Sequence record: OL631257.1
Origin: Escherichia phage ECCR664
DNA: 64,000 bases
Reading direction: 5' to 3' (one strand)
The position numbers were made by a program, and so were the translations under genes. The notes under the pieces are model-generated. The model saw only the letters and a list, made by a program, of their open reading frames with translations. It was not told the DNA's origin and did not search any database. Within the stretch, counting starts at the first letter, position 1, and each line of letters begins with the position of its first letter. Below, piece by piece: positions 2,935-61,715 of the stretch.

Positions 2935-3460
2935 TTATGCGTGAACCGTCTTTAAACGTTCTTCAAATTTCCGAAGAGTACTAATACGTTCTGCTTTCTG
3001 TTTTGTATAGTTTGCAATACGTTCTGAAGTGAGAGCGTATCGTTCGTTTACTGTTTCTTTCATGAAGTCAGGGATTTCACGAGAAGCTTTAATTTCATCA
3101 AACTTATCGAGTACTGCCTGGTCTTCAGCGATTAAATTTTCGTACATCTCGATATCTTTCTTAATGAAGTCGATATCTTCCTGTGTTACTTTGGATAAAC
3201 GAGATGCTTTATCCTTTTGTACTGCTCGTTAGTTTCACGAGACCAGAATAATGTACGTTTTTGTTAGTGTTTTTGTAGACTTCCACAATTCCAACTGAAT
3301 CGATGATAACAATCCAATTCCAGCGAGATTTGAAAATCTGACCTCCATCCACGGTAATCTCATTACCATAAGCAACGTCATTAAAGAACTTGCTTTGTGC
3401 TTCAGATTTAAATTTACCGTCGTTATAATTTACCAGGTTGAAAATATCTTTAGCGTTCAT
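2935..3460 (-). CDS. hypothetical protein, possibly one gene split by a frameshift (ORFs 3209..3460 and 2935..3147)
   Basis: two collinear ORF fragments. Confidence 0.35.
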
Positions 3461-3518: not shown

Positions 3519-3830
3519 CTAAAAGAAACTTTTTCGGTATTTTTCCACTGAACCAAACCGACTTCGGGATTTTTGTAATTTTTCAGATTTAAGTTTCTCT
3601 TCCTGTTCTTTCTTATATACACCCTTGTCGTACTGGAGCATCTCTATGGCATTCTTTTGCAAACGATCTAAGGTAATTAAGGCTTTAGTTTTTCCTTTCA
3701 AGGAAGAGTCCTGGCGAACCTCCTCGCTATATTGCATTGTAGAACTAACCATACGATGAGCATAGAGTTCGACTGCTGCTTTGATTTTTGCATAAAATCC
3801 ATAACATATCCTCTTTGATTTGTACATCAT
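3519..3830 (-). CDS. hypothetical basic protein, 103 aa
   Basis: ORF 3519..3830. Confidence 0.35.
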   Translation of the reverse strand: MMYKSKRICYGFYAKIKAAVELYAHRMVSSTMQYSEEVRQDSSLKGKTKALITLDRLQKNAIEMLQYDKGVYKKEQEEKLKSEKLQKSRSRFGSVEKYRKSFF

Positions 3831-3940
3831 TATTTTTAAATATTTCTATGCCCTCAGTAGGTTCCTGGTGTCCTTCTTTGAGGTAAGCCATATGATTATT
3901 CATCTTTATGGCTTTTGTTACCTCAGAACTTCCTATAAGC

Positions 3941-4940
3941 TTATTTCAGTAAAGTTACTTCGGAGATTTCCTCCCAACCATCTTTATCAGTTGAAATAAA
4001 ATCTGCTACATAAAGAGCCGTACGTAATGATACATTGCGAAGACGAGATACGTTAGCCTTCATCCAGGACAATGCTTTGTACGTTTCAGCATCAGTCAGA
4101 CCACGTTTCTGCATCATGTCAGTAGATAATATTACATCTTCAACTCGAACCATAATCTCTTCATTAGAGTGTACTCCAAGGTCGAGATACACTGAACGAG
4201 ATACTAAAGCTTGAAGGTGTGGAGCAAGTTTCGAACCACGTTCTAACTCTTTATCGATATCAACGTTTGTAATGAAAACGATAGTACCTTCAAACTCAAA
4301 TTCTTTATCAATACCCTTATCATCAAGATAAGATGACGCAGTGCTCCAACAAACTTTGCGTTTATCTCCGGTATCTAATGCTGCTTTAAGAAGGTTCAAG
4401 ATATCCATATCAGAGAATACATCAACATCGTCGATTAAGAGAACGCTGTCTGCATCACGGTTGAGCCAAAGTTGTTCGTAAAGGCCAATACCAGAGATTT
4501 TACCATTAATGCTTTTGTATTTGATGAAGCCATTATCATTAGCACTATTAAGTGCTTTATCCAGAGAATACGTCTTACCAATACCGGCTGCACCTGAAAT
4601 AATGAGTGAACGAATTTTGCCATCGATAATGCCATTCGTCATCATGTTCATTACTTTAAAGCGTTTGTTGATGCGAGTTTTCATATCTTCAGTGCTTTCA
4701 ACAACTGCAACTGGTGATGTCTCAACTCCTTCCATTACGATGTCTGATTTGAAGACCCATACTCCACGTTCAGAACCATCAATCATAACGAAAATTTTAC
4801 CATCACCTAAGTGGGAACATTCAGGATTAAGCTTTGCTGGGAACCAGGTCTTTGTGGCGACATAAGAACCAGAGATTTCGTTATTACGATAGATACCTTT
4901 TGATTTGAACGTTGAACATTTTATTCTCCAATTTACTCAT
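3941..4940 (-). CDS. P-loop ATPase (AAA-like), N-terminus apparently frameshifted
   Basis: Walker A GAAGIGKT, Walker B LLIDDVD, downstream FITN sensor-like motif in ORF 3941..4786; open frame continues upstream to ~4940. Confidence 0.55.
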
Positions 4941-5009
4941 TTCGTTTCGATAGGTCTATAATAACATATCCTAAAAGCATGTACACTACTTTTTAAAAAT
5001 ATTTTAACC

Positions 5010-5035
5010 CCTAAAGGGACCCGAAGGTCCCCACA
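5010..5035 (-). terminator. stem-loop (GGGACC-CGAA-GGTCCC) downstream of minus-strand gene 5037..5318
   Basis: perfect 6-bp stem with tetraloop; T-rich tract weak. Confidence 0.4.
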
Positions 5036-5036
5036 T

Positions 5037-5318
5037 TTACTTATCGCACTTAGCAACATAATTAGGCATATCACAGAATACGGAGCGAGTAACTACTCGA
5101 CCCTTTGACCATGCTTCAGTTGCTTGTCCGGCAGTGCTATTAATATAGCTTGATTTGATATTCTCAATACCCTGAGAATGTGATGCATTTACCGAACCGT
5201 TGGAAGGCCCAGAAGACTGGTTACCACCAGCTCCTGCACTACCGCTGGCTGCACCCGTGGTAGCACCAACAGAGAACGCCATCATTACTGCGAATAAACC
5301 AATTACTAATTTTTTCAT
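5037..5318 (-). CDS. small secreted/periplasmic protein (signal peptide, Gly/Ser/Ala-rich)
   Basis: N-terminal MKKLVIGLFAVMMAFSVGA hydrophobic leader; 93 aa. Confidence 0.5.
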   Translation of the reverse strand: MKKLVIGLFAVMMAFSVGATTGAASGSAGAGGNQSSGPSNGSVNASHSQGIENIKSSYINSTAGQATEAWSKGRVVTRSVFCDMPNYVAKCDK

Positions 5319-5413
5319 ATTTACCTCAAGTGAATGGTTATTTATCTATTTATAGTAAGAATTATGATTTTCGAGATAGACTTGCTCAAGGAAATCATCC
5401 CAGAAACTCATAT

Positions 5414-6334
5414 CTACTTTTGTTGCATACCGTTCTTAGCGGCTTGTTCTGATGCTTGTTCAACTTGGTCAACGATATCTTCTAGGAATTCTTGTACAGT
5501 TTTAAACGTATGTTTACCAAGCTTAACATCAAGAATAAATGGAGCATCCTGAAGCGGGTAAACCAGGTCACCGGTTTTGTAAATTTCCAATAATTGAAGT
5601 CCACCACGACATGCATGACTCAATGCTTTCCAGTCAATACCTTCGTTGGCTTCCGCCTTACGAGCACGTTCACCATAGTTCTCTTCCAGTTTAACCAGGA
5701 TGGCATTGAACTCTTTATTGGTTAACGTGTCTTGGAATTTACGGTCTAATAGATTATAGAATGTTTGCTTACCTGTTTTCTCGTTTTCGGTTTCAACCCA
5801 TGAAGCAAATTCACCTACAGGCAGAACATTCTTCATATGTGATAAACGAATTACCGCACCATTATCAAAGTATTGTCCCCATTCATTAGAACGTTTAAGG
5901 GCTTGACGAAGAACAGCCAGTCGAGAACCCTTGACACCATATTTAGAAGCTTGCTTACGGACATACCCTAAATAAGATTTCATGTTAGTGGTATAGAAAC
6001 GAGACCTGTTATCTTGAATATACTTCCATACATCAGGCAAATCAGATTTAACTACTAGACTTGGTGGGGTGTGAAGCATATCTAATGCGACGGTTTCACC
6101 ATCTGCAGCTAGTTTAAAGAAATATTTGAGACTATACAACTCGTGGTCCACGTCGTCTTTTGTGTTCTTAGAAGCAGTGTTGTTAGTGTTCTTGCTCATG
6201 TGTTCTTTAACGTTACCGGTCAAGATATCACGAGCATGAGGGACATAAATTTCTTTAAAATCGACGTCAGATTCAGGAGTAGACGTTCCATAAAGGTGGC
6301 TACCAAAGTAGCCTTTCATAATTGTTTTCATCAT
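5414..6334 (-). CDS. Pol-beta-superfamily nucleotidyltransferase-like protein
   Basis: N-terminal GSHLYGTSTPESDVDF matches the GS-x9-DxD nucleotidyltransferase motif; 306 aa with long C-terminal region. Confidence 0.5.
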   Translation of the reverse strand: MMKTIMKGYFGSHLYGTSTPESDVDFKEIYVPHARDILTGNVKEHMSKNTNNTASKNTKDDVDHELYSLKYFFKLAADGETVALDMLHTPPSLVVKSDLPDVWKYIQDNRSRFYTTNMKSYLGYVRKQASKYGVKGSRLAVLRQALKRSNEWGQYFDNGAVIRLSHMKNVLPVGEFASWVETENEKTGKQTFYNLLDRKFQDTLTNKEFNAILVKLEENYGERARKAEANEGIDWKALSHACRGGLQLLEIYKTGDLVYPLQDAPFILDVKLGKHTFKTVQEFLEDIVDQVEQASEQAAKNGMQQK

Positions 6335-6804
6335 TTAGCCTTATATTCAAGAGTAGGACAGACTTTTTCTTTACGAGCTTTAAGGTATTCACCTATTAAT
6401 GATTTCTTACGTTCAATAGGCTCAAGTCCATTTTTAATTCGTTCTTGGTTTTGTGCAATGAGCTCAATTTCTTTATAATATTTTCTGTCGTTATATTTGT
6501 CTAATAACCAAGATGGACCAATTACCGCCCCGACAGCAATAAGAACCATTACTGATATTGTTAAAATGCCTATACCAATTGAAGCAGGAACTAATGTCCA
6601 TAAACTACTAAAGACAAAGAATTTAGTTAAAATTTCTTGGCCAATGATTGCGGCACCTGCTAAAGTTGCAAATCCAACAATTGAAACAGCCAATACCGGA
6701 ATAAACGTTTTCCAAAAATAAGCACATAATGTTTTCGGACGATTCCACGTACTATTGAACGTGGCATAAATTTTAAAGTGCCAAGAGTTTTCATTGATAA
6801 TCAT
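6331..6804 (-). CDS. membrane protein (two hydrophobic segments)
   Basis: ORF 157 aa with hydrophobic stretches IPVLAVSIVGFATLAGAAIIG and GIGILTISVMVLIAVGAVIG. Confidence 0.45.
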   Translation of the reverse strand: MIINENSWHFKIYATFNSTWNRPKTLCAYFWKTFIPVLAVSIVGFATLAGAAIIGQEILTKFFVFSSLWTLVPASIGIGILTISVMVLIAVGAVIGPSWLLDKYNDRKYYKEIELIAQNQERIKNGLEPIERKKSLIGEYLKARKEKVCPTLEYKAK

Positions 6805-6806
6805 AA

Positions 6807-7343
6807 TAATTCCTTATTTCAAAGTCGGGATAATAGAATCGAGATAAGCTTTAAGAGCAACTGCTTCATCTTTGTCTAATGTAATGATATGTTGACGAAG
6901 GTCATCAATTTGGCGAATAACTACAACATCACCGTCTTCATAAGAAGGATTAACGCTCAGGACTGTTGTATAGTCAGGGTTGTCCTGATTTGTAATAAAA
7001 GCATTACGACATTTAGCCCATTGAAGTTTGGCCTTTTGGCTGTTTCAGATTCCATGAATTCTTTCACTTTAGCGACGAATGTTTTCCAATTATTAATAGA
7101 AAAACATTCGTCTTCTGTTTCGATATTAACCCCACTATAAAGTCCGTGATAAAAACGAACTTGAAGGTCTTCATCAATGTTAATTACAGATGCATGGCCT
7201 GGTGGATTGAGTTTCAAAATCTTGTCCAGTTCCATAGGAAGAATAGTAACAGCATCATCTTCTTGCGTCAGAACGTAAGCATAACCGCGTTTTTCAATAC
7301 ATAAATCACCGAACAACTCTGTTGTTTCAATTACAGTTTTCAT
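6807..7343 (-). CDS. hypothetical protein, apparent frameshift near 7030
   Basis: ORF 6957..7355 (real start MKTVIETT) with open frame continuing to ~6807. Confidence 0.4.
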
Positions 7344-7649
7344 ATTATTCACCAATTAAAGTTTCAACAAAATTCACCAAAGCATTCTGGCAAGCGTCAA
7401 CCTGATTTTCATAAAAGTCTACGTTATCATTTACCGCATGATAAGCTACATCATTCAAATCTGAATCGGCTTCACGTAAGTCATGGATAAGGTCCATCAA
7501 TTTATTAGCTTGTTCACGGGTCATTTTACCATACTCGTTTCAATAAGATTCACTATGCCGTTTACCATGTTATAAGTAAACATCGGATAATTGTATTGTA
7601 CTACAACATAAGCGATAAGCAAAAGTTTCATTTTGTTCTCCGTTCGTTT

Positions 7650-7690
7650 TGATAGGACTACTATAACATAGTCCTATCAAGTTGTAAACT
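7650..7690 (-). promoter_or_regulatory. early promoter motif embedded in 10-bp perfect inverted repeat GATAGGACTA/TAGTCCTATC
   Basis: minus-strand GTTTACAACTTGATAGGACTATGTTATAGTAGTCCTATC. Confidence 0.55.
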
Positions 7691-7925
7691 ACCGATTGTG
7701 TTTTAAATGTTGATAAAGTTCTTCAACTTGTTTAGGGTCCAAAACAATTAAGTCATTTTCTTGACGAAGATAAATCCATCCCTTATCCCCAGGGCCATTT
7801 TTACAAAACATCACCGTCGTCATATCGTCATCTTCAGCGCTTTCAGGTAAAAGTTCAAGTACACCGTCTTCAGATTTTCCAGTATAATCGTAAAGCATAA
7901 TATCCTCACATAATCTCGTTAACAT
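7689..7925 (-). CDS. hypothetical protein 78 aa
   Basis: ORF; early-promoter motif 7650-7690 just downstream. Confidence 0.4.
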   Translation of the reverse strand: MLTRLCEDIMLYDYTGKSEDGVLELLPESAEDDDMTTVMFCKNGPGDKGWIYLRQENDLIVLDPKQVEELYQHLKHNR

Positions 7926-8152
7926 ACATTTGCAATTCGGTGTGCGTATCAGCCATCTTTTTCATAGCTCTGTTAATGTCGATGTCTCCATCTTCGCAAC
8001 CATGAGCATTTTCCCAATCAGATACCGCATTAGCGTACTCTTCAATCAAAAACATTAACTTAGAAATTTTTTCTTTACGTGTCATAATGTTCTCCTCTAG
8101 TAAGTAAAGACTACTATAACACAACCTGAGGAAAAGTAAACTGCTAAATGCC

Positions 8153-8181
8153 AAAAGCCCCAACCTTTCGGAAGGGGCTAT
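8153..8181 (-). terminator. rho-independent terminator after rI
   Basis: hairpin AGCCCC…GGGGCT with A-run on plus strand (T-run on minus); same ~27-bp sequence as at 24114-24142. Confidence 0.65.
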
Positions 8182-8185
8182 TAAA

Positions 8186-8487
8186 TTAGATAGATGTAGG
8201 CTCTAATTTTATTTTCATGAACTCAGCAAATTGTCTGGCGGTTTTTATGCCTTGTTCATGACATTCAAATGCATCATCACAGGGACTATTTTTGTAATGC
8301 TTTGCCATATACTTATAGAATTTTTCAGAATTCTCGACATTTTGAATTTCAAACAAAGTATATACGTTTTTAATCCCTGATTCCATAAAGTTATCAAAAT
8401 ATGGGTCGATATGTGCAGTACCAACGATAGGAGTTGTTGCTGCAAAAACCCCAGCATCGCTATGACAGCTATCGCTCTTAAGGCCAT
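8186..8487 (-). CDS. rI: lysis inhibition regulator rI (frameshifted, two fragments)
   Basis: N-terminus MALRAIAVIAMLG and C-terminus …FMESGIKNVYTLFE…CHEQGIKTARQFAEFMKIKLE resemble T4 RI; fragments 8245..8487 and 8186..8386 in different frames. Confidence 0.75.
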
Positions 8488-8499
8488 ATAGGCCTCCTG

Positions 8500-8712
8500 T
8501 TAATTTTGGCCAGTATTTATTTTTCGCCTTTGGACGGCCTTAACATCTGTGAGGTATTTTTCCAGCTTGCGCTTGCGTGTATAATCAGCTTTAGAACCAG
8601 TTTGACGGATATCCTCATTTAAATGAGAAATAGAATGTCCTAATTCTCTTCGGATTTCATCCAATTGGGTTACAGTAAGATTACGAAGTTGTCTTTCGTT
8701 TAATTGCTGCAT
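8500..8712 (-). CDS. hypothetical protein 70 aa
   Basis: ORF. Confidence 0.4.
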
Positions 8713-8739
8713 ATATACCTCTTGGTTAGATATTAGTAT

Positions 8740-9319
8740 TTATAACAACCCTGTCAAATCATTCCAATGCTTCCGGCATAATGACACGTATCTATCAGTA
8801 TCACCAATTTCAATTTGACTGCCATCTGTAATTGGAAGTCCGTCTTCCGTGACTCTAGCTACCATTGTGGCCTTTTACCACAATGACAGACACCTTTAAG
8901 TTCAACAAGCTTATCGGCAATAGCCATTAATGCTTGAGAACCTTCAAATAGATTACCTTTAAAATCTGTTCGTAGTCCATATGCCATTACTGGCACATTG
9001 TATACGTCAACAATACGACTAAGTTGATACACCTTTTCAGTAGTTAAGAACTGAGCTTCGTCAACAAATACACAATGAATATCCTTTGTGCTGCAGCCCA
9101 TTTATAGAATTCAAAGATGTCCATGTCTTTTGTAATTATATTGGCATCCTGACGAATACCAATACGAGAGACTATTTCACCTTTTGAATCACGAGTATCA
9201 ATAGCCGGTTTAAGAACTAATACACCCATGCCACGTTCTTTATAGTTATGTGCGGCAGTAAGTAATGAAGCAGACTTACCAGCATTCATAGCGGCATATG
9301 TAAAAATTAAACTAGCCAT
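8740..9319 (-). CDS. tk: thymidine kinase (frameshifted in two places)
   Basis: [21 protein letters not shown]-loop; …VFVDEAQFL…CHCGK… as in T4 Tk; three collinear fragments. Confidence 0.9.
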
Positions 9320-24164: not shown

Positions 24165-24440
24165 CTACTAAGGCAAGTGTTTGTACGAAACGCCGGGATT
24201 CGAACCCGGTTATTAAGCAGTTGACGCTACTCAATATTTTTAAAGGCCATATCTCGACCATATCCGAACGTTCCGTCAAAAACGCTACTCGGCTTACGGC
24301 AAAGATATTTCCTCGAATCGATAATTCTGTGCGCCGTTTCTGCTGTGATGTAAGGGGATATTAACGAATCATAAAGATTTATTAAGACCAGTCCTTACTC
24401 AGGGAACATCAGTCCGACGACTTGCCGGTAGCGACCCGGC
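24165..24440 (-). ncRNA. putative tRNA-like/stable small RNA region (cf. T4 species 1/2 RNAs)
   Basis: minus-strand T-arm-like CCGGGTTCGAATCCCGG at ~24189-24210 with no protein-coding frame; boundaries not determined. Confidence 0.3.
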
Positions 24441-48543: not shown

Positions 48544-50867
<2,324 letters not shown>

Positions 50868-50894
50868 AAATAAAGCAAATTAAGAGGAATTAAA

Positions 50895-52876
50895 ATGGCA
50901 CTTCTCTCTCCGGGCGTTGAGCTCAAAGAAACTACCGTACAGAGTACTGTAGTTAATAACTCCACTGGTACTGCTGCCCTGGCTGGAAAATTCCAATGGG
51001 GACCTGCATTCCAGATTAAACAAATCACTGATGAAGTTGCATTAGTTGATATGTTTGGTACTCCTAATACGGATACAGCAGATTATTTCATGTCTGCTAT
51101 GAACTTCCTTCAATACGGTAATGACCTTCGTGTTGTACGCGCAGTTGATCGTGATACTGCTAAGAACTCATCTCCTGTAGCAGGCAATATTGAATTCACA
51201 ATCTCTGCCGCTGGTAGTAACTATGCGGTTGGTGATAAAATTATCGTTAAGTATTTGACCGAAACTGTTGAAGCAGATGGTTATGTCACTTCAGTTGATG
51301 TCGATGGTAAAATTCTTAACATTTATATCCCAACCGGTAAAATTATTGCTCGTGCAAAAGAAATTAATGAATATCCGGCATTGGGTTCTAACTGGACCGC
51401 CGAAGTTGCCAGTTCTTCTTCTGGACTCTCTGGCGTTATTACAATTGGTTCTATCGTAACCGATTCAGGTATTCTGTTGACTGAAGTTGAAACTTCAGAA
51501 GAAGCTATTACTTCTCTAACTTTCCAAGAATCTATTAAAAATATGGTGTCCCAGGCGTAGTTGCTCTTTATCCTGGTGAACTTGGCGACCAGCTCGAAAT
51601 TGAAATCGTATCTAAAGCAGACTATGACAAAGGTGCTTCAGCCCAGTTAAAAATTTATCCTGATGGCGGTACTCGTGCATCTACTGCTAAAGCAATCTTT
51701 GGATATGGCCCACAAACTGATGACCAATATGCAATTATCGTTCGTCGTAACGATGCTGTAGTCCAGAGCGTAGTTCTTTCTACTAAACGTGGTGAACGAG
51801 ATATTTATGGTAGTAATATCTTTATTGATGATTTCTTTGCTAAAGGCGCAAGCAATTATATTTTCGCTACTGCACAAGGTTGGCCAAAAGGTTTCTCTGG
51901 CGTAATCAAACTGAGTGGTGGCTTATCATCTAATGAAACGGTCGACGCTGGTGATTTAATGGAAGCTTGGGATTTGTTTGCTGACCGCGAATCTGTTAAT
52001 GCGCAGTTGTTTATTGCCGGTTCTTGTGCAGGTGAATCTTTAGAAGTTGCTTCTACAGTTCAGAAACATGTTGTAGCAATTGGTGATTCTCGCCAAGATT
52101 GCTTGGTTCTTTGCTCACCACCACGTTCAACTATAGTCGGTATTCCTGTTAATCGTGCAGTTGATAATCTTGTTGATTGGCGTACTGCATCAGGAACTTA
52201 CACTGATAATAACTTTAATGTAAGTTCTACTTATGCTGCTATTGACGGTAACTATAAATATCAATATGACAAATATAATGATGTGAATCGTTGGGTTCCA
52301 TTAGCTGCTGATATCGCTGGTCTTTGTGCTCGTACAGACAATATTTCTCAGCCTTGGATGTCTCCGGCTGGTTATAACCGTGGACAAATTCTTAACGTTA
52401 TTAAGCTTGCAATTGAAACTCGTCAACCACAACGTGATCGTTTGTATCAGGAAGCTATTAACCCTGTTACTGGTACCGGTGGTGATGGATATGTTCTGTA
52501 TGGTGATAAAACTGCCACTTCTGTTCCTTCACCATTTGACCGTATTAACGTTCGTCGTTTGTTCAATATGGTTAAAACGAACATTGGTTCAGCATCTAAA
52601 TATCGCCTGTTTGAATTGAACAACGCATTTACCCGTTCTTCTTTCCGTACAGAGACTTCTCAATATCTACAGGGTATTAAAGCTCTCGGTGGTGTATATA
52701 ACTTTAAAGTTGTTTGTGATACTACCAATAACACCCCAGCAGTTATCGACCGTAATGAATTTGTAGCTACTTTCTACTTACAACCTGCCCGCTCGATAAA
52801 TTATATTACGTTGAACTTTGTAGCAACAGCAACTGGTGCCGATTTCGACGAACTGATTGGTGCTGTAGGTGGTTAA
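50895..52876 (+). CDS. 18: tail sheath protein gp18 (one frameshift at A-run ~51537)
   Basis: MALLSPGVELKETTVQSTVVNNSTGTAALAGKFQWGPAFQ…; total ~660 aa as T4 gp18. Confidence 0.95.
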
Positions 52877-52908
52877 TAAGACGCCTGATGGGCTATTTCG
52901 GTAGCCCA

Positions 52909-52916
52909 TATAAATA
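52909..52916 (+). promoter_or_regulatory. late promoter TATAAATA (gp19)
   Basis: exact motif in gp18-gp19 intergenic region. Confidence 0.55.
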
Positions 52917-52988
52917 TACTATATCGTTTAAAAATTAATTCTATGGGCATCCGGTTAATCCTAAGCCCATATTACTACAGAGGCTAAT

Positions 52989-53478
52989 ATGTTTGTAGAT
53001 GACGTAACTCGTGCCTTCGAATCTGGTGATTTCGCTCGCCCTAACCTGTTCGAAGTAGAAATCTCTTATCTTGGGCAAAACTTTAGCTTCCAGTGTCGTG
53101 CTACGGCTCTTCCTGCTGCGATCGTTGAAAAGGTTCCTGTTTCTTATATGAACCGTAAAATTAACGTGGCAGGTGACCGTACATTTGACGATTGGACTAT
53201 TACAGTAATGAATGACGATGCTCATAGTATTCGTCAGAAATTTGTTGATTGGCAAGGTATTGCAGCAGGACAAGGTAATGAAATTACCGGTGGTAAACCT
53301 GCTGAATATAAAAGACTGCTATCGTTCGTCAATTTGCTCGTGATGCTAAAACGGTCACTAAAGAAGTTGAAATTGTTGGCTTGTGGCCTACTAACGTCGG
53401 CGAAGTATCTCTTGACTGGGATTCGAATAACGAGATTGAAACGTTCGAAGTAACTCTTGCTCTTGATTGGTGGGAATA
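52989..53478 (+). CDS. 19: tail tube protein gp19 (one frameshift at A-run ~53310)
   Basis: MFVDDVTRAFESGDFARPNLFEVEISYLGQNF… matches T4 gp19. Confidence 0.95.
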
Positions 53479-53527
53479 ATCTGGTTGGGGAGAAATCCCC
53501 AGCTTCCCGTGATGACGGAGAAGTCCA

Positions 53528-53535
53528 TATAAATA
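53528..53535 (+). promoter_or_regulatory. late promoter TATAAATA (gp20)
   Basis: exact motif ~30 nt upstream of gp20 start. Confidence 0.6.
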
Positions 53536-53563
53536 TAACTATAATTCCCATTCGGAGAATACA

Positions 53564-55132
53564 ATGAAATTTAATATCTTAAGTTTGTTTGCTCCATGGG
53601 CAAAAATGGACGAACGTGATTACAAAGACCAAGAAAAGAAAATTTAGAATCGATCACCACACCAAAATTAGACGACGGCGCTAAAGAATACGAAGTATCT
53701 GAAAATGAAGCACAGCAAACATATAATGCTATGTTTCAGAGAATGTTCGGTAGCCAAGAACCAGGGCTCAAATCAACGCGTGAATTAATCGATACGTATC
53801 GAAATTTGATGACGAACTATGAAGTGGATAATGCAGTCTCTGAAATAGTTTCCGATGCTATCGTATATGAAGATGATACAGAAGTCGTTTCTATAAATTT
53901 AGACAACACAAAATTTAGTCCAAATATCAAATCAATGATGTTGGATGAATTTAACGAAGTGTTAAATCATTTATCTTTCCAACGTAAAGGTTCAGACCAT
54001 TTTAGACGTTGGTACGTAGATTCTCGAATTTTCTTCCATAAAATTATTGACCCTAAACGCCCTAAAGAAGGTATTAAAGAGCTTCGTCGTTTAGACCCAC
54101 GTCAAGTTCAATATGTCCGTGAAGTTATTACAACCACTGAAGCTGGTGTTAAAATAGTCAAGGGTTATAAAGAATATTTCATTTATGACACATCACACGA
54201 ATCTTATGCTTGTGATGGTCGCATATATGAAGCTGGCACAAAAATAAAAATCCCTAAAGCCGCGATTGTTTATGCCCATTCTGGTTTAGTTGATTGTTGT
54301 GGTAAAAATATCATTGGTTATTTGCATCGGGCTATTAAGCCGGCGAACCAATTAAAACTTCTTGAAGATGCCGTCGTAATTTATCGTATTACTCGTGCTC
54401 CAGATCGTCGTGTATGGTACGTTGATACAGGTAATATGCCTTCAAGAAAAGCAGCAGAACATATGCAACATGTTATGAATACGATGAAAAACCGTATTGC
54501 ATATGATGCCACTACAGGCAAGATTAAAACCAACAGCATATTATGTCGATGACCGAAGATTATTGGTTACAACGACGTGATGGTAAAGCAGTAACAGAAG
54601 TTGATACATTACCGGGTGCAGATAATACTGGAAATATGGAAGATGTACGTTGGTTCCGTAATGCGCTTTATATGGCTTTACGTATTCCTATTACCCGTAT
54701 TCCAAGCGACCAAGGTGGTATACAGTTTGATGCTGGTACTTCTATTACACGAGATGAATTGTCATTTGGTAAATTTATTCGTGAGCTGCAACATAAATTT
54801 GAAGAGATATTCCTAGACCCGCTTAAAACTAATTTAATTCTTAAAGGAATTATTACAGAAGATGAGTGGAATGATGAAATAAATAATATTAAGATAAAAT
54901 TTCATCGGGATAGTTATTTCTCGGAATTAAAGGATGCTGAGATTCTGGAGCGTCGCATTAATATGCTTCAGATGGCCGAACCATTTATTGGTAAATATAT
55001 TTCTCACAGAACAGCTATGAAAGATATTCTTCAGATGTCTGACGAGGAAATTGAACAAGAGGCTAAGCAAATTGAAGAAGAGTCGAAAGAGGCTCGTTTC
55101 AAGACCCCGACCAAGAACAAGAGGATTTTTAA
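53564..55132 (+). CDS. 20: portal protein gp20 (at least three frameshifts)
   Basis: [25 protein letters not shown]…; …[13 protein letters not shown]…; …[32 protein letters not shown]… matches T4 gp20. Confidence 0.95.
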
Positions 55133-55368
55133 TGGACGATTTAATTCAAGCTATTAAATCAAACGACCTCGTTGCTACTCGAAAGTTTTTGAAAGTGCAA
55201 TGGCAGAAAAAACGGTTCGTTTGATTGAAGCACGCAAAGCAGAAATCGCTTCTCAATTTTTGATTGAAGGCGAAGAACCTGAAGAAGAAAAGAAAGCTAA
55301 AGCTTCGGAAGACGACGCTGATGAAGGCGATGACGACGAAGACGAAGATGATGAGGACGATGAATAAT
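55132..55368 (+). CDS. 67: prohead core protein gp67 (one frameshift at T-run ~55186)
   Basis: [19 protein letters not shown]…; acidic C-terminus …[15 protein letters not shown] in shifted frame. Confidence 0.85.
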
Positions 55369-55779
55369 GTATCTTATCCCTGAATCTTATGAATTGGTAC
55401 TCGAAAATGTCGAAGCACTTATTCCTGAAGCACAGGGCCGAATCGATGCATTGTCTTCTGCTCTCGATATTGACGATATAAATACTATTATCGAGAACAT
55501 GCTTGAAACTGAAACGGATTTAGCTGTTGCAATGGCTTCCATTATTAATGAAGAACAGTTAAATGAGTTTATCGTTAAACATGTTTCTTCTCGTGGTGAA
55601 GTCACCCGCACTAAAGACCGTAAAACTCGTGAACGTAACGCGTTCCAAACAACCGGTCTTTCTAAAGCAAAACGTAGACAAATCGCTCGTAAGGTCGTTA
55701 AAGCTAAAAAGCTAACCCTTCAGGCCAAGTTAAAGGCATGCGTAAGCGTAAAAAGCTCTTAAACGTCGTAAAGCATTAG
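55367..55779 (+). CDS. 68: prohead core protein gp68 (C-terminal frameshift)
   Basis: position between gp67 and gp21; basic C-terminus …[12 protein letters not shown] in shifted frame. Confidence 0.75.
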
Positions 55780-55789
55780 GATTAAGCTA

Positions 55790-56431
55790 ATGAATAAACC
55801 CGAGTTACTTATTGAAACTTGGGGTCAACCCGGTGAGATTATTGATGGCGTTCCAATGTTGGAATCTCATGATGGAAAAGATTCTGGCTTAAAACCAGGG
55901 CTTTATATAGAAGGTATTTTTCTTCAGGCAGAGGTTGTTAACCGAAATAAACGTTTATATCCTAAACGCGTTTTGGAAAAAGCAGTAAGTGACTATATTA
56001 AAGAACAAGTCGCAACCAAACAAGCCCTTGGAGAATTAAACCATCCACCTCGCGCAAATGTTGACCCTATGCAAGCCGCTATCATTATTGAAGATATGTG
56101 GTGGAAAGGAAACGATGTATATGGACGCGCTAGAATTATTGAAGGTGACCATGGTCCCGGTGATAAATTAGCTGCTAATATACGAGCTGGTTGGATTCCA
56201 GGTGTTTCCTCTCGTGGTCTTGGTTCTTTAACCGACACCAATAAAGGGTACCGTATCGTGAACGAAGGATTTAAATTAACCGTCGGTGTAGATGCCGTAT
56301 GGGGACCTTCTGCTCCAGATGCTTGGGTTACTCCTAAACAAATATCAGAATCAGAAAATTCGGTGGAAATCACCAAAAACAGTGCTGATGAAGCATTTAA
56401 AGCTCTCGCAGAGAGTTTAAAAGCATTATAA
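55790..56431 (+). CDS. 21: prohead core scaffold / protease gp21
   Basis: …LLIETWG…GEIIDGVPMLESHDGKD…LGELNHPPRANVDPMQAAIIIEDMWWKGNDVYGRAR… matches T4 gp21. Confidence 0.95.
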   Translation: MNKPELLIETWGQPGEIIDGVPMLESHDGKDSGLKPGLYIEGIFLQAEVVNRNKRLYPKRVLEKAVSDYIKEQVATKQALGELNHPPRANVDPMQAAIIIEDMWWKGNDVYGRARIIEGDHGPGDKLAANIRAGWIPGVSSRGLGSLTDTNKGYRIVNEGFKLTVGVDAVWGPSAPDAWVTPKQISESENSVEITKNSADEAFKALAESLKAL

Positions 56432-56434
56432 ATA
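56427..56434 (+). promoter_or_regulatory. late promoter TATAAATA (gp22)
   Basis: exact motif ~30 nt upstream of gp22 start. Confidence 0.6.
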
Positions 56435-56464
56435 ATAATGTAATCTAAACCACAGGACACTAAA

Positions 56465-57276
56465 ATGATCAAAGAACAACTTTTGAAAGAAGCTCAGAAC
56501 ATCGAGACTTCAGTTGCTCTTAATAGTGTTTTCGAATCAGTAGAACTGTCTCCGGACGTTAAAGCTAATTTCAGCACTGTATTCGAAGCCACCGTTAAGC
56601 AGGAAGCAGTCAAACTGGCTGAATCTCATATCAAAGCCATCGCCGAAAAGGCTGAAGAAGAAGTTGAAAAGGCCAAAGAAGATGCTGAAGAGAAAGCTGA
56701 TAAAAATTGGCTGAACAAGCTTCTAAATTCCTAGACCATCTTGCAAAAGAATGGCTCACAGAAAACCAAATCGCAGTTGATAAAGGCATTAAAGCTGATT
56801 TGTTTGAATCCATGCTTGGTGGTCTGAAAGAACTGTTTGTTGAACATAACGTTGTTGTTCCAGAAGAATCTGTAGATGTTGTAGCAGAAATGGAAGAAGA
56901 GCTGGCCGAACATAAAGAAGAAACCGCTCGTTTGTTCGAAGAAGTTACCAAACGTGATGCATATATCAATTACGTTCAGCGTGAAACCGCTATTAATGAA
57001 AGCGTAAAAGACCTGACTGAATCTCAGAAAGAAAAAGTTATTGGCCTGGTTGAAGGTATGGATTATTCTGACGCATTTGGTACTAAGTTAACTGCTATTG
57101 TAGAAATGGTTAAAGGTTCTACTAAAGAAGAAGCCGCTATTACCGAAAGTATAAATACAGTTGACAATGACGCTGCCGGTCTTAATTTTGTTGCCGAAGC
57201 AGTTGACACTACCACAACTCAGGTAGAACAGAATTCTAATGTAAGTTTATATGCGAAAGTCGCATCTCGTTTCTAA
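56465..57276 (+). CDS. 22: prohead core scaffold protein gp22 (one frameshift at A-run ~56702)
   Basis: two fragments of 89 + 189 aa, acidic coiled-coil protein; position. Confidence 0.9.
57150..57157 (+). promoter_or_regulatory. late promoter TATAAATA inside gp22 3' end (gp23)
   Basis: exact motif ~140 nt upstream of gp23 start. Confidence 0.5.
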
Positions 57277-57293
57277 TTTAAAGGTTAACACAA

Positions 57294-58862
57294 ATGACTA
57301 CTATCAAAACTAAAGCTCAGCTCGTAGACAAATGGAAAGAACTGCTGGAAGGTGAAGGCCTGCCGGAAATCGCTAATAGCAAGCAGGCTATTATCGCTAA
57401 AATCTTCGAAAACCAGGAAAAAGATTTCGAAGTATCCCCTGAATATAAAGACGAGAAAATCGCTCAGGCATTTGGTTCTTTCTTGACCGAAGCTGAAATT
57501 GGTGGTGACCACGGTTATAATGCTCAGAACATCGCAGCAGGTCAAACCTCTGGTGCAGTAACCCAAATTGGGCCGGCAGTTATGGGTATGGTTCGTCGTG
57601 CTATTCCTAATCTGATCGCTTTTGATATTTGTGGTGTTCAGCCTATGAACAGCCCGACCGGTCAGGTATTTGCTCTCCGTGCAGTATATGGTAAAGACCC
57701 TATCGCTGCTGGCGCTAAAGAAGCTTTCCATCCGATGTATGCCCCAGACGCGATGTTCTCTGGTCAGGGTGCTGCTAAGAAATTCCCAGCTCTGGCTGCT
57801 GACACTACTACTGTTGTAGGTGATATCTATACTCACTTCTTCCAAGAAACTGGTACTGTATATCTGCAAGCTTCTGCTGTCGTAACACTTGATTCTAGTG
57901 CAACTGATGCAGCTAAATTAGATGCAGAAGTTAAGAAACAAATGGAAGCCGGTGCACTGGTAGAAATCGCTGAAGGTATGGCTACTTCTATCGCTGAACT
58001 CCAGGAAGGTTTCAACGGTTCTACCGATAACCCATGGAATGAAATGGGCTTCCGTATCGATAAACAAGTTATCGAAGCTAAATCTCGCCAGCTGAAAGCT
58101 GCTTACTCTATCGAATTAGCACAAGACCTCCGTGCAGTACACGGTATGGATGCTGATGCTGAACTGAGCGGTATTCTGGCTACAGAAATTATGCTAGAAA
58201 TCAACCGTGAAGTTGTTGATTGGATTAACTACTCAGCACAGGTTGGTAAATCTGGTATGACCCTGACTCCAGGTTCTAAAGCTGGTGTATTTGACTTCCA
58301 GGACCCGATTGATATCCGTGGTGCTCGTTGGGCCGGTGAAAGCTTTAAATCTCTGTTGTTCCAGATTGATAAAGAAGCAGTTGAAATTGCTCGTCAAACC
58401 GGACGTGGTGAAGGTAACTTCATTATCGCTTCCCGTAACGTAGTTAACGTACTGGCTTCAGTTGATACTGGTATTTCTTACGCTGCACAGGGTCTGGCTT
58501 CTGGTTTTAATACCGACACTACTAAGTCTGTATTTGCCGGTGTACTTGGTGGTAAATACCGCGTATATATCGACCAGTATGCTAAACAGGATTACTTCAC
58601 CGTTGGTTACAAAGGCGCTAACGAAATGGATGCAGGTATTTACTATGCTCCTTACGTTGCACTTACCCCACTGCGTGGTTCCGATCCTAAGAACTTCCAG
58701 CCGGTAATGGGCTTTAAAACTCGTTACGGTATCGGTGTTAACCCGTTTGCTGAAAGTTCCCTGCAGGCTCCAGGTGCTCGCATCCAGTCCGGTATGCCGT
58801 CTATCCTGAACAGCCTTGGTAAGAACGCTTACTTCCGCCGTGTATATGTAAAAGGCATCTAA
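57294..58862 (+). CDS. 23: major capsid protein gp23
   Basis: intact 522-aa ORF closely matching T4 gp23 throughout. Confidence 0.98.
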   Translation: MTTIKTKAQLVDKWKELLEGEGLPEIANSKQAIIAKIFENQEKDFEVSPEYKDEKIAQAFGSFLTEAEIGGDHGYNAQNIAAGQTSGAVTQIGPAVMGMVRRAIPNLIAFDICGVQPMNSPTGQVFALRAVYGKDPIAAGAKEAFHPMYAPDAMFSGQGAAKKFPALAADTTTVVGDIYTHFFQETGTVYLQASAVVTLDSSATDAAKLDAEVKKQMEAGALVEIAEGMATSIAELQEGFNGSTDNPWNEMGFRIDKQVIEAKSRQLKAAYSIELAQDLRAVHGMDADAELSGILATEIMLEINREVVDWINYSAQVGKSGMTLTPGSKAGVFDFQDPIDIRGARWAGESFKSLLFQIDKEAVEIARQTGRGEGNFIIASRNVVNVLASVDTGISYAAQGLASGFNTDTTKSVFAGVLGGKYRVYIDQYAKQDYFTVGYKGANEMDAGIYYAPYVALTPLRGSDPKNFQPVMGFKTRYGIGVNPFAESSLQAPGARIQSGMPSILNSLGKNAYFRRVYVKGI

Positions 58863-58887
58863 TCTTAATTGATTAAATCTTATTTTG

Positions 58888-58915
58888 GGAGACTTCGGTC
58901 TCCCATTTTTGGTTT
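58888..58915 (+). terminator. rho-independent terminator after gp23
   Basis: GGGAGAC-TTCG-GTCTCCC followed by ATTTTTGGTTTT. Confidence 0.8.
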
Positions 58916-59184
58916 TATTTCTGTGCAATTTCGATGTAAGTTTTCAAAATATTTTGCCAATTAGGCATACCTTCTTGGACATATGCTGGAGAACCGTCTT
59001 TGTTTTTGAATGATGCAAGTTTATCAGTGGCCCAATAACCTTTAGCTCGAGCTTCAGAATCAACTTTCATCCATACTTTGTTGAAGGCATTACCATTAAC
59101 TTTTGCACCATATTTTTCTACTAACTTAACTGCTTCAGCTTCTAGAACTTTTAAAGTATCTCGTAAGAAACGTGCTTTAGTCAT
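58915..59184 (-). CDS. hypothetical protein (89 aa) in the gp23-gp24 intergenic position, with its own early-promoter motif
   Basis: ORF MTKARFLRDTLKVLEAEAVKLVEKYGAK…; promoter motif at 59200-59245; no GIY-YIG or HNH motif. Confidence 0.5.
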   Translation of the reverse strand: MTKARFLRDTLKVLEAEAVKLVEKYGAKVNGNAFNKVWMKVDSEARAKGYWATDKLASFKNKDGSPAYVQEGMPNWQNILKTYIEIAQK

Positions 59185-59199
59185 TTTGTTTACTCCTCT

Positions 59200-59245
59200 G
59201 TAGTTGATAAGTCTATAGTATCACATACCAAATACGTTGTAAACA
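59200..59245 (-). promoter_or_regulatory. early promoter motif upstream of the ORF between gp23 and gp24
   Basis: GTTTAC at 59239-59244 (minus); GATAAGTCTATAGTATCAC element as in other copies. Confidence 0.5.
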
Positions 59246-59250
59246 ATCTT

Positions 59251-59258
59251 TATAAATA
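59251..59258 (+). promoter_or_regulatory. late promoter TATAAATA (gp24)
   Basis: exact motif ~27 nt upstream of gp24 start. Confidence 0.6.
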
Positions 59259-59284
59259 ATCTATATCACATAAGGAAAAATGCA

Positions 59285-60567
59285 ATGAGTAAAATCCAAA
59301 AATTATTGCGTGAATCTACAACGTCTACTAGCAACTCAATCGGTCGCCCAAATCTCGTTGCTTTGACTCGCGCTACGACTAAATTAATATATTCTGACAT
59401 TGTGGCAACACAAAGAACTAATCAACCTGTTGCTGCTTTTTATGGTATTAAATATCTTAACCCAGACAACGAATTAACATTTAAAACTGGTGCTACTTAT
59501 GCCGGTGAAGCTGGATATGTAGACCGAGAAAAAATTACCGAGCTCACAGAAGAATCAAAAGTCACACTAAATAAAGGCGATTTTTTCAAATATAATAATA
59601 TCGTCTATAAAGTGTTAGAAGATACACCGTTTGCAGATATTCAGGAAAGTGATCTAGAATTAGCTCTTCAGATTGCGGTCGTTCATTTAAAGGTACGGCT
59701 ATTTTCAGATGCAGCGGTAACAAGCAAATTTGAAAGCTCTGGTAGCGAAATTTCTGATGCAAGATTCCAGATTAATAAATGGCAAACTTCAGTCAAATCT
59801 CGTAAACTTAAAACCGGCCTCACGGTTGAATTAGCGCAAGATTTGGAAGCGAATGGATTTGATGCCCCTAACTTCTTAGAAGATTTGCTTGCTACTGAAA
59901 TGGCTGATGAAATTAATAAAGATATTCTTCAGTCTTTAATTACTGTATCGAAACGTTATAAAGTTACTGGAATTACTGACACCGGATTTATTGACTTGAG
60001 CTATGCGTCTGCTCCGGAAGCAGGTCGTTCGTTATATCGAATGGTGTGTGAAATGGTATCACACATTCAAAAGAGTCAACTTATACTGCAACGTTTTGCG
60101 TAGCTTCAGCTCGTGCAGCTGCTATTCTTGCTGCTTCGGGTTGGTTAAAACATAAGCCGGAAGATGATAAGTACCTTTCACAAAATGCTTATGGATTCTT
60201 GGCAAATGGATTACCTCTTTACTGCGATACCAACAGTCCGTTAGATTATGTTATTGTGGGTGTTGTAGAAAATATCGGCGAAAAAGAGATTGTAGGGTCC
60301 ATCTTTTATGCTCCATACACTGAAGGAATGGATTTAGACGACCCGGAACATGTCGGTGCATTTAAAGTTGTAGTTGATCCGGAAAGCTTACAACCGTCTA
60401 TAGGTTTATTGGTTAGATATGCTTTATCAGCAAATCCTTACACAGTAGCAAAAGATGAAAAAGAAGCTAGAGTAATTGATGGCGGGGACATGGATAAAAT
60501 GGCAGGACGTTCAGACTTGTCTGTTTTACTCGGTGTTAAATTGCCTAAAATTATTATAGATGAATAA
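59285..60567 (+). CDS. 24: capsid vertex protein gp24 (one frameshift at A-run ~60069)
   Basis: two fragments totalling ~427 aa; gp23-like fold expected from position and size. Confidence 0.9.
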
Positions 60568-60570
60568 ACG

Positions 60571-60596
60571 AAAAAGGGACCGTAAGGTCCCTTTTT
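60571..60596. terminator. bidirectional terminator between convergent gp24 and rnlB
   Basis: AAAAA-GGGACC-GTAA-GGTCCC-TTTTT. Confidence 0.75.
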
Positions 60597-60600
60597 CTTG

Positions 60601-61597
60601 TTATGATACTAATTCAATCCATGCAGGACGCAGAACATCTTGCACCATTCGGACTAATTCTTTCTTAACAAGACTCGGGTCATCGGATGATGTTAATACA
60701 ATACCTTCACGAGAAGTTTCTTCCAGAATATCTTGAACAGTCAATCCCATCACTTTGCCAAAATCTTTTGGCGTTACTGTCCCAATCTTAGAAATCACAT
60801 TGTTAACACGATTTAATGTAACATAACAAGCTAGAACATCAAGCAAGTTTTTGTCAATTTCGGTTAATGGAACCTGAGTTTTAATAGGCTTATCAGACTT
60901 TTCTTTTCACTGAATTTAGAGTTCTTGCACTTAATAGCTACACGAGTACCGTTTGGCAGCCATTTAGGAAACAAGGCTTCAGAACATAACCTTCTGCCGT
61001 ATTATCACCAATAACATTAGCATCAAATACACAATTATTTGCTTCGACAAGGTCTTCTGACGCAGTAGCATTATAAGCGGCTAAGACGGAATCAAGGTCA
61101 TTTGGAATCATGATAAGAGAATCAAATGTTCCACGACCAAGCATTGGTGCCATTTTAAAACCAAATTCATTACAGAAATCTTGCATTTCGTAATCGGTCA
61201 AATACGTATTATCACCACTTTCTGTATTGATAATGATATCGAACACATAAAAATCTTTTTCACCGTAGTCAACACCTTTCTGGATTCCACCACCAGCGAA
61301 TTCACCGAATACTTGATATGATACGGCTCGAGCTGTGTACATGAATTCCTGAACGGCTTTAATAGCTTTATCATACTTCTTGAGTACGATTTCATAACCG
61401 TAAAAATCTTCTGCTGGAAGAATAGGGCCTGTGCGCTTGGCGCATGTGACGTTGTCACGTTCAATAATTAAACTAAAGTTGGTCCCATGGATTTTCTCAC
61501 GTGCTACCCAAACACCAGTAGTCAAACCATTAGTGTAGAGTTTTTCAATAAACTTAGAGTTGTAGTGGTTTTCAAGACTGCTGTATTTCTTAAACAT
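60601..61597 (-). CDS. rnlB: RNA ligase 2 (RnlB), frameshifted
   Basis: [21 protein letters not shown]…[18 protein letters not shown] (ligase KxHG motif) and C-terminus …VISKIG…[18 protein letters not shown]… match T4 Rnl2. Confidence 0.9.
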
Positions 61598-61715
61598 AAA
61601 TCACCATTATAAATAATAATATCAAAATAATTAGCAGAGACTCTATCTCCGACCCGATGTTTAATTTGAATGGATAGAACCTAGATTCATTATACCATCA
61701 AAAATGTAAAGCATA

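Follow-up and report, generated by a model that had tools for sequence, protein, structure and literature searches.

The 64,000-nucleotide stretch of Escherichia phage ECCR664 that was analyzed here (sequence record OL631257.1; hereafter the window) carries four consecutive genes on its minus strand between positions 3941 and 6804. They encode an AAA+ ATPase, a small protein of 93 amino acids (aa), a nucleotidyltransferase (NTase) and a membrane protein of 157 aa. A preliminary description of the window took them for an accessory module without a recognized core T4 function. We find instead that the four-gene stretch is the ordinary nrdC-mobD early-gene region, that its genes are independent and already catalogued, and that it is no new accessory module. 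Our joint reading is that this is the nrdC-mobD region of an RB69-like phage with four independent genes, that the NTase feeds tRNA repair, and that the apparent truncations of two of the genes are base-calling errors. We give this reading, taken as a whole, a probability of about 0.7.

The region is a common one. Megablast finds it in 558 phage records, of which 151 cover at least 80% of its length, and the best match is the Mosigvirus phage LNA2 with 98.7% identity. Judged by its sequence matches, the window belongs to an RB69/JS09-like (Mosigvirus) phage of the T4 type. Base composition across the region is unremarkable. The four consecutive minus-strand open reading frames (ORFs) are where they had been placed, at 3941-4786 (281 aa), 5037-5318 (93 aa), 5414-6334 (306 aa) and 6331-6804 (157 aa), and in this order the proteins fall into PHROG families 1250, 2243, 388 and 944. 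In T4 and its relatives, including JS09, the ATPase is annotated as nrdC.10 and the NTase as nrdC.11. BLASTP gives 83% identity between the ATPase and T4 NrdC.10, and 77% identity over the full length between the NTase and T4 NrdC.11; the corresponding family matches are phrog_1250 (E 1e-146) and phrog_388 (E 7e-115). Both large genes are conserved ORFs of the T4 nrdC/mobD region, an outcome that the preliminary description had itself named as speaking against its proposal.

What the description said about the fold of the 306-aa protein stands. It had proposed a Pol-beta-type NTase on the basis of the motif GSHLYGTSTPESDVDF, which is present, and had suggested profile searches to place the protein within the superfamily. 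These put it in the Pfam family RlaP (PF10127), with 47.3 bits for the ORF as given and 48.5 bits for the full-length protein, at a gathering cutoff of 23. An exhaustive search for homologues yielded 3,228 clusters at 50% identity (E <= 0.001). Among 87 diverse full-length homologues, which are 33-52% identical to the query, 86 match RlaP in Pfam and no other family. Residues G11, S12, S22, D23, D25, N57, D63, Y132, K236, R243 and G273 are invariant in all 87, the residues of G-S and D-x-D included, while D61 and D85 are near-invariant (D85 is kept in at least 90%). The same catalytic positions hold in a five-sequence alignment that reaches down to 29% identity. Since the G-S pair, the D-x-D pair and a third aspartate are invariant, the Pol-beta catalytic signature is intact. 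By its profile score and these residues, the protein can be called a secure member of the RlaP family with a Pol-beta fold.

Parts of this were known. A comparison published in 2006 reported a COG3541 NTase match for nrdC.11 and an AAA match for nrdC.10 (PMC1524935), and a preprint of December 2025 placed T4 NrdC.11 in cluster 5 of PF10127 (PMC12776372). The same preprint describes two RlaP proteins from Pseudomonas that add one or two nucleoside monophosphates to the 3'-OH of RNA, and not to DNA or protein. These enzymes prefer Mn2+ and, in a mimic of cleaved tRNA, the end at the break rather than the acceptor-side fragment, and a tRNA that had lost one nucleotide was aminoacylated better after repair; RlaP was proposed to serve as the antidote to ribotoxins that excise nucleotides, RloC among them (PMC12776372). 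A role in countering RloC in phages had already been predicted in a survey of 2021 (PMC7824862). By analogy with the bacterial members of the family, the NTase of the window most likely has the same activity, and cleaved tRNA is most likely its target in the phage. It would bind a nucleoside triphosphate (NTP) and a divalent metal at the site formed by G-S, D-x-D and the third aspartate. Phage Pnkp and RNA ligase 1 would then heal and seal the break, leaving a usable tRNA.

The gene neighborhoods of distant relatives point the same way. We inspected the neighbors within 6 kb of the NTase gene in 80 diverse viral contigs, 40 of them with an NTase at least 50% identical to that of the window and 40 with a less similar one. 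In the less similar set, 10 of the 40 loci have an RNA-repair gene in this interval, always on the NTase strand. The NTases at the loci that follow are full-length members of the same subfamily with about 40% identity, and their neighbors lie on the same strand. In L101 the NTase is followed by an RNA ligase (PF09414) and then by a T4-type Pnkp, with reading frames that abut or overlap (5962-9179 of that contig). In L106 and L107 the order is a Zeta/AAA_33 P-loop kinase, a healing enzyme with HD and AAA_33 domains, an Rnl1-type ligase and then the NTase (1855-6933 in L106). An RNA ligase lies 1.2 kb downstream of the NTase in L097, and an Rnl1-type ligase about 3 kb away in L078. An HD-domain protein adjoins the NTase in L099 and L090. 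In Vibrio phage R16F the NTase gene overlaps that of an enzyme with a PolyA_pol head and an HD domain, which is of the CCA-adding type; such neighbors were scanned for with the PolyA_pol head alone. The tblastn matches of L106 and L099 to the R16F enzyme were rejected as CCA-adding enzymes, as Pfam finds that they cover the HD domain only. As an aside, both L101 and L106, which are contigs of uncultured viruses, contain a compact operon of phage RNA-repair genes.

The operons that distant members of the subfamily form with RNA ligase and Pnkp support tRNA repair as the role of the NTase, a reading that the literature has already proposed. It was also among the options that the preliminary description offered, and we favor it over the others in view of RlaP membership and these operons. 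The operons make nrdC.11 of T4 or RB69 a stronger candidate for a gene that acts against nucleotide-excising tRNA nucleases. The pathway into which the NTase would feed is the T4 system in which Pnkp (PseT) and Rnl1 counter the anticodon nuclease PrrC; Mosigvirus-type phages have homologues of both Pnkp and Rnl1. Classical T4 repair needs no nucleotide addition, whereas the NTase would extend it to breaks that lack a nucleotide, as predicted in the literature. Numbers of phage records with NTase, Pnkp and Rnl1 match by genus: 622, 636 and 637 for Escherichia, 286, 286 and 287 for Klebsiella, 83 each for Shigella, 75, 77 and 77 for Aeromonas, 69, 70 and 69 for Acinetobacter, and 56 each for Enterobacter. 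Such agreement fits a shared role.

Several points weigh against this reading. The near-identical counts may mean no more than that nearly all T4-like phages have all three genes. In these phages the genes are not linked locally: the NTase gene is not adjacent to an RNA ligase gene and lies about 80 kb from pseT and rnlA, and no repair gene is found within 6 kb of the NTase at any of the 40 closer loci (NTase identity of 50% or more), nor in the window. Repair neighbors at distant loci are limited to the 10 in 40 mentioned above, of which L106 and L107 are near-duplicates and some are 3-5 kb away. RlaP activity has been measured for two bacterial (Pseudomonas) enzymes in a single preprint (PMC12776372), and for phage members it is a prediction. 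The similarity to T4 NrdC.11 and to RlaP consists of 77% identity, a Pfam score above threshold and conservation of G-S, D-x-D and the third aspartate; the characterized RlaPs, however, belong to cluster 1a, which is distant from the phage subfamily (cluster 5), and they are paired with RtcB and RtcA, whereas the partners in phages would be the 5'-phosphate ligase Rnl1 and Pnkp. The alignment to the Pfam model is confined to the N-terminal NTase domain (profile positions 23-147 of 249), and the C-terminal domain may therefore be unlike its counterpart in the characterized enzymes. The crystal structure of PfRlaP has an N-terminal NTase domain and a C-terminal helical domain whose terminal helix packs on the NTase domain. 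Sequence searches of the PDB (one with the single sequence and two with profiles) found no RlaP structure. Our AlphaFold model of the NTase, built from a shallow alignment of nine sequences, is too poor for use, with a predicted local distance difference test score (pLDDT) of 58 and values below 50 in the NTase domain; its C-terminal two-thirds are predicted to be helical, which is consistent with the RlaP architecture and not decisive. Finally, the T4 segment nrdC.11-mobD.3 can be deleted under laboratory conditions (PMC9825161), which fits a conditional role and proves nothing.

What else could the NTase do? It might act on other RNA ends, either by restoring trimmed 3'-CCA termini of tRNA together with CCA-adding enzymes or by tailing phage or host RNAs. 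Enzymes with a PolyA_pol head or of the CCA-adding type do occur near distant homologues, overlapping the NTase in R16F and within about 4 kb of it in L071, L082 and L085. The bacterial RlaPs also labeled species of the size of rRNA and of full-length tRNA besides tRNA fragments, and they show little NTP specificity. But the tightest operons pair the NTase with RNA ligase and Pnkp, which are enzymes for internal breaks, and the bacterial enzyme favored the 3' end at the break over the acceptor-side fragment in a mimic of cleaved tRNA. On balance we think that a role at other RNA ends is unlikely, though it deserves to be kept in mind. A far more doubtful suggestion is that the NTase is a signaling or anti-signaling enzyme (CD-NTase-like, anti-CBASS or anti-Pycsar) or belongs to a toxin or antitoxin type such as AbiEii, MenT or MntA. 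The preliminary description had listed cyclic-nucleotide synthases, AbiEii/MenT-type toxins, antibiotic NTases and anti-CBASS functions among its candidates. All that speaks for a signaling or toxin NTase is the G-S/D-x-D core motif shared across the Pol-beta superfamily. Against it, PADLOC gives no match to a defense family, the NCBIfam MntA model scores 13 bits (cutoff 60) with no significant stretch, Pfam NTP_transf_2 reaches 13.4 bits (cutoff 21), all 86 of the homologues that match Pfam match RlaP only, and RNA 3' ends are the substrate of the characterized RlaPs. We give this suggestion hardly any weight and keep tRNA repair as the favored function. For that matter, none of the four proteins has a meaningful match in PADLOC or NCBIfam.

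The lengths of the two large genes need correction. As given, the ATPase ORF (281 aa) lacks its N-terminus through a two-base homopolymer deletion near 4897, and the NTase ORF (306 aa) is shortened at its C-terminal end by a one-base homopolymer deletion near 5417. Compared with all close relatives, the window is short of two T in the run at 4897 and of one T at 5417. With the two T put back, the ATPase gene starts at 4919 with GGAG eight bases upstream and encodes 326 aa (3941..4919, minus strand). With the one T put back, the NTase gene ends at 5346 and encodes 329 aa (5346..6334, minus strand). The corrected lengths agree with every database homologue; relatives are annotated with 326 aa for nrdC.10 and 328-329 aa for nrdC.11. 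Protein conservation continues in the shifted frame on both sides of each frameshift.

The same kind of error runs through the window. Alignment to four relatives reveals about a dozen deletions in the window, mostly of single bases and nearly all in runs of at least five, and at every site the four relatives are unanimous against the window. Over about 10 kb compared with a fifth, full-length relative, every one of 18 insertions or deletions is a deletion in the window, 15 of them in homopolymers of at least four bases. Six-base runs occur at 0.22 per kb in the whole window and at 0.9-1.5 per kb in relatives, which makes them about five times rarer. Hence it is this window-wide under-calling of homopolymers that accounts for the odd lengths of the ATPase and the NTase, whose apparent truncations are base-calling errors; the gene lengths and boundaries of 281 and 306 aa are artefacts. 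Examples of under-called runs are at 1185, 1238, 3214, 3257, 3534, 3539, 3784, 4897, 5007, 5417, 7033, 8152, 8443 and 8872. Neighboring genes suffer likewise: the nrdC.8 homologue (2935-3460) is broken into ORFs of 83 and 70 aa, and those of nrdC.9 (DUF7203; 3519-3830) and mobD.1 (T4_y05I; 6957-7355) are disrupted or shortened, while in relatives the three are intact at 175, 95 and 176 aa.

Could the frameshifts be real, so that in this phage nrdC.10 is truncated at the N-terminus, nrdC.11 is truncated at the C-terminus and nrdC.8 is broken? The sequence as given does encode the shorter ORFs, and a split nrdC.10 exists in at least one other deposited phage, SHFML-11. Yet genuine mutations would have to coincide with 18 of 18 length differences being deletions in the window, 15 of them in homopolymer runs, with the roughly fivefold shortage of six-base runs, with similar damage to the neighbors nrdC.8, nrdC.9 and mobD.1, and with conserved protein sequence that persists on either side in the shifted frame. 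Real truncation is thus very improbable. Since systematic homopolymer errors frameshift many genes, claims from this window that concern ORF length, pseudogenes or novel small ORFs are suspect, and any such observation should be treated with caution.

We now return to the notion of a module. A tblastn search of 50,697 phage records gives 1,535 records for the NTase, 1,311 for the ATPase, 1,190 for the membrane protein and 102 for the 93-aa protein. ATPase and NTase both occur across T4-like phages of Escherichia, Klebsiella, Acinetobacter, Aeromonas and Vibrio. In T4 itself neither small gene is detected at this locus by tblastn: the homing endonuclease gene mobD takes the position of the membrane-protein gene, and there is nothing between nrdC.11 and nrdC.10. 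The differing distributions, the transcription signals inside the set (a hairpin and a promoter-like site, described below) and the loss of adjacency in distant phages indicate that the four genes are not one unit, and the accessory module has to be given up.

One may still ask whether all four genes, or at least the ATPase and the NTase, function together, for example with the ATPase as a motor that delivers or releases damaged RNA or nuclease complexes. Tevenvirinae and the Acinetobacter phages of the Twarogvirinae share the order NTase, small ORF(s), ATPase, and among the 40 closer loci (NTase identity of 50% or more) there are 26 with the ATPase gene within 6 kb of the NTase gene. This adjacency is consistent with inherited synteny. 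An Aeromonas phage, KVP40-like vibriophages and jumbo phages have lost it, and each has one gene without the other nearby (the ATPase without the NTase in Aeromonas, Vibrio and jumbo phages), and only 1 of the 40 loci below 50% identity has the ATPase. About half of the Klebsiella records with an NTase have no ATPase (149 against 286), the hairpin and the promoter-like site separate the two genes, the spot between them takes insertions, and T4 does without both small genes here. We therefore regard a co-functioning unit as improbable, and are equally skeptical of a narrower version in which NrdC.10 is the partner of RlaP in T4-like phages and, for instance, strips anticodon nucleases or stalled complexes off damaged tRNA. 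If that version were true, the conserved nrdC.11-nrdC.10 pair would be an unrecognized extension of the T4 RNA-repair counter-defense pathway.

On its own, the ATPase is a true AAA+ protein. The motifs SGAAGIGKT (Walker A) and LLIDDVD (Walker B), noted before, are present. Comparison with eight homologues down to 35% identity and with 58 down to 45% identity finds the Walker A residue K116, the Walker B residues D164 and D165, the sensor-1 residue N219, R242 (in S-R-S/C) and R300 (in S-L-R) invariant; by position, R242 would be the arginine finger and R300 sensor-2. In the confident AlphaFold model (pLDDT 90.4), an N-terminal beta-rich domain (residues 1-64) is followed by an AAA+ core, into which a hairpin is inserted ahead of sensor-1, and by a helical lid, so that an alpha-beta-alpha nucleotide-binding core is followed by a helical lid as in AAA+ proteins generally. 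Likeness to T4 NrdC.10 (phrog_1250) extends beyond the 83% identity to the same corrected length and the same position next to nrdC.11. The viral structures that match the model are all uncharacterized phage proteins. The closest known AAA+ proteins are those of the MoxR type (NorQ/CbbQ), a clade with inserts of its own, and the AAA+ domains of sigma-54 activators. MoxR-type proteins are the top structural matches, by small margins and with at most 15% identity; the model has the hairpin ahead of sensor-1, and no gene for a VWA protein, the partner of MoxR-type ATPases, was seen in the neighborhood. A sequence search of the PDB gave no match. The label clamp loader, found in some GenBank records and in weak PHROG matches, was rejected, since similarity specific to RFC/gp44 above that to other AAA+ clades was not found; an HTH_37 match in the lid region was below threshold and was not used.

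Outside phages the ATPase is hardly seen. A scan of about 185,000 bacterial and archaeal species, each represented by one genome, gives 12 loci, every one of them from a metagenome bin and several from contigs of phage size. Its jumbo-phage homologues L011-L013 (in Klebsiella phage phiKp_21, Erwinia phage pEa_SNUABM_12 and Pseudomonas phage Deifobo) sit among unrelated genes for small and membrane proteins, with no NTase nearby, and in the two enterobacterial ones the beta domain at the N-terminus is missing. The ATPase belongs to an orphan AAA+ family restricted to phages, widespread and with no characterized member. From its predicted fold it is probably an ATP-driven oligomeric remodeling motor, and local gene order is its only tie to the NTase.

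As for transcription, the hairpin that the preliminary description placed at 5010-5035 exists, at 5015..5032 on the minus strand. It does not flank the set but sits inside it, between the small ORF and the ATPase gene, directly 3' of the 93-aa ORF. Its sequence is GGGGACC-UUCG-GGUCCCU, that is a G+C-rich stem of 7 bp with a UUCG loop. It folds with -14.6 kcal/mol, reaches only z = -1.5 relative to shuffled sequences and lacks a clean U-run. A rho-independent terminator is annotated at the same site in phage SA79RD, and the hairpin is a probable terminator that parts the upstream genes from the ATPase gene. A second hairpin, at about 3880-3924 on the minus strand just 3' of the ATPase stop codon, is stable (z = -2.9) and has no U-tract; SA79RD has a terminator annotated at the equivalent site.

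Promoter motifs that would flank the module were not borne out. A promoter-like site 5' of the ATPase gene (4958..4985, minus strand; TGTACA, 16 nucleotides, TATTAT, with TG) is a match to the consensus that lies inside the set, and generic sigma-70 promoter-like and terminator-like sites are no more frequent in the region than in shuffled sequence. The motif TATAAATA matches the T4 late-promoter consensus exactly at 5347..5354 (minus strand), 29 nucleotides upstream of the 93-aa ORF and overlapping the last NTase codons; a late promoter is annotated at the same site in SA79RD, and the motif is a putative late promoter here. It is enriched in the window, with 17 matches where 8.3 are expected and no shuffled sequence reaching 17. 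At about 30 kb the matches change from the minus strand (for example at 5347, 8737 and 14205) to the plus strand (for example at 50860-61608), a sign that transcription may change direction there. Upstream of the set, the mobD.1 homologue ends about 10 nucleotides before the membrane-protein gene, and so there is no room for a promoter boundary there. From the positions of the hairpin, the promoter-like site and the late-promoter motif, a layout in three parts is likely: upstream genes together with the membrane-protein and NTase genes, a cassette of late promoter, small ORF and hairpin, and a separately promoted ATPase gene.

The two small proteins add little to the question of function, and neither has a functional homologue in Pfam, PHROG, NCBIfam or PADLOC. 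The gene for the 93-aa protein (5037..5318, minus strand; phrog_2243, E 4e-38; called 'VR7ORF099c-like' in relatives) probably encodes a secreted or periplasmic product. Hydropathy analysis finds a single N-terminal hydrophobic segment after MKK, consistent with the signal peptide proposed earlier. Then comes a linker that is 73% Gly, Ser, Ala, Asn and Thr and differs in length among phages, including a 15-nucleotide in-frame length polymorphism at 5233-5247 relative to JS09 and p000y; two cysteines lie near the C-terminus. A YbgS-like Pfam match (E 0.0015, 19 bits, cutoff 27) is probably due to low complexity and was not used. All 102 records with this protein are Mosigvirus-type phages of Escherichia or Shigella, and it can be described as a Mosigvirus-specific predicted secreted protein in a late-promoter/ORF/hairpin cassette of its own. 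Between the 93-aa ORF and nrdC.10, at a point corresponding to about 4944-4967 of the window, some close relatives have an additional insert of about 250-290 nucleotides that contains a 72-aa ORF. Carriers are LNA2, F27, G2469, JM10 and the contig of P0001; the insert is seen in the relatives L004 and L108 (6412-6630 in L108). This spot is an insertion hot spot.

The 157-aa protein (6331..6804, minus strand) is a member of a widespread family of phage membrane proteins, known as RB69ORF104c in relatives such as JS09 (phrog_944, E 3.5e-52). Hydropathy places hydrophobic stretches at residues 30-56 and 62-103, followed by a basic soluble C-terminal tail. It had been described as a two-helix membrane protein; a membrane protein it is, with two to three transmembrane helices rather than clearly two. 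The 1,190 phage records with the family include Tequatrovirus (about 49% identity), phages of Klebsiella, Aeromonas and Pseudomonas, and the Vibrio phage ICP1.

As a discovery the stretch has little weight: the four genes are catalogued, and the NTase family, its likely activity and its likely anti-RloC role are already in the literature. Its practical value lies in the warning about homopolymer errors, in the operon context of phage RlaP and in a case of mislabeling. In many deposited phage genomes (GenBank, UniRef) homologues of nrdC.10 and nrdC.11 bear the name 'thioredoxin', which we reject as neither Pfam nor NCBIfam gives a match to a thioredoxin family; it seems to have been carried over from the gene names, which are positional. 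Elsewhere in the window, ARAGORN reports a 'tRNA-Stop' of 94 nucleotides with the anticodon TTA at 24183-24276 (minus strand), with tRNA-Arg(TCT) and tRNA-Met(CAT) beside it. Possible explanations are a suppressor-like tRNA and a tRNA with a long arm that was miscalled through homopolymer errors.

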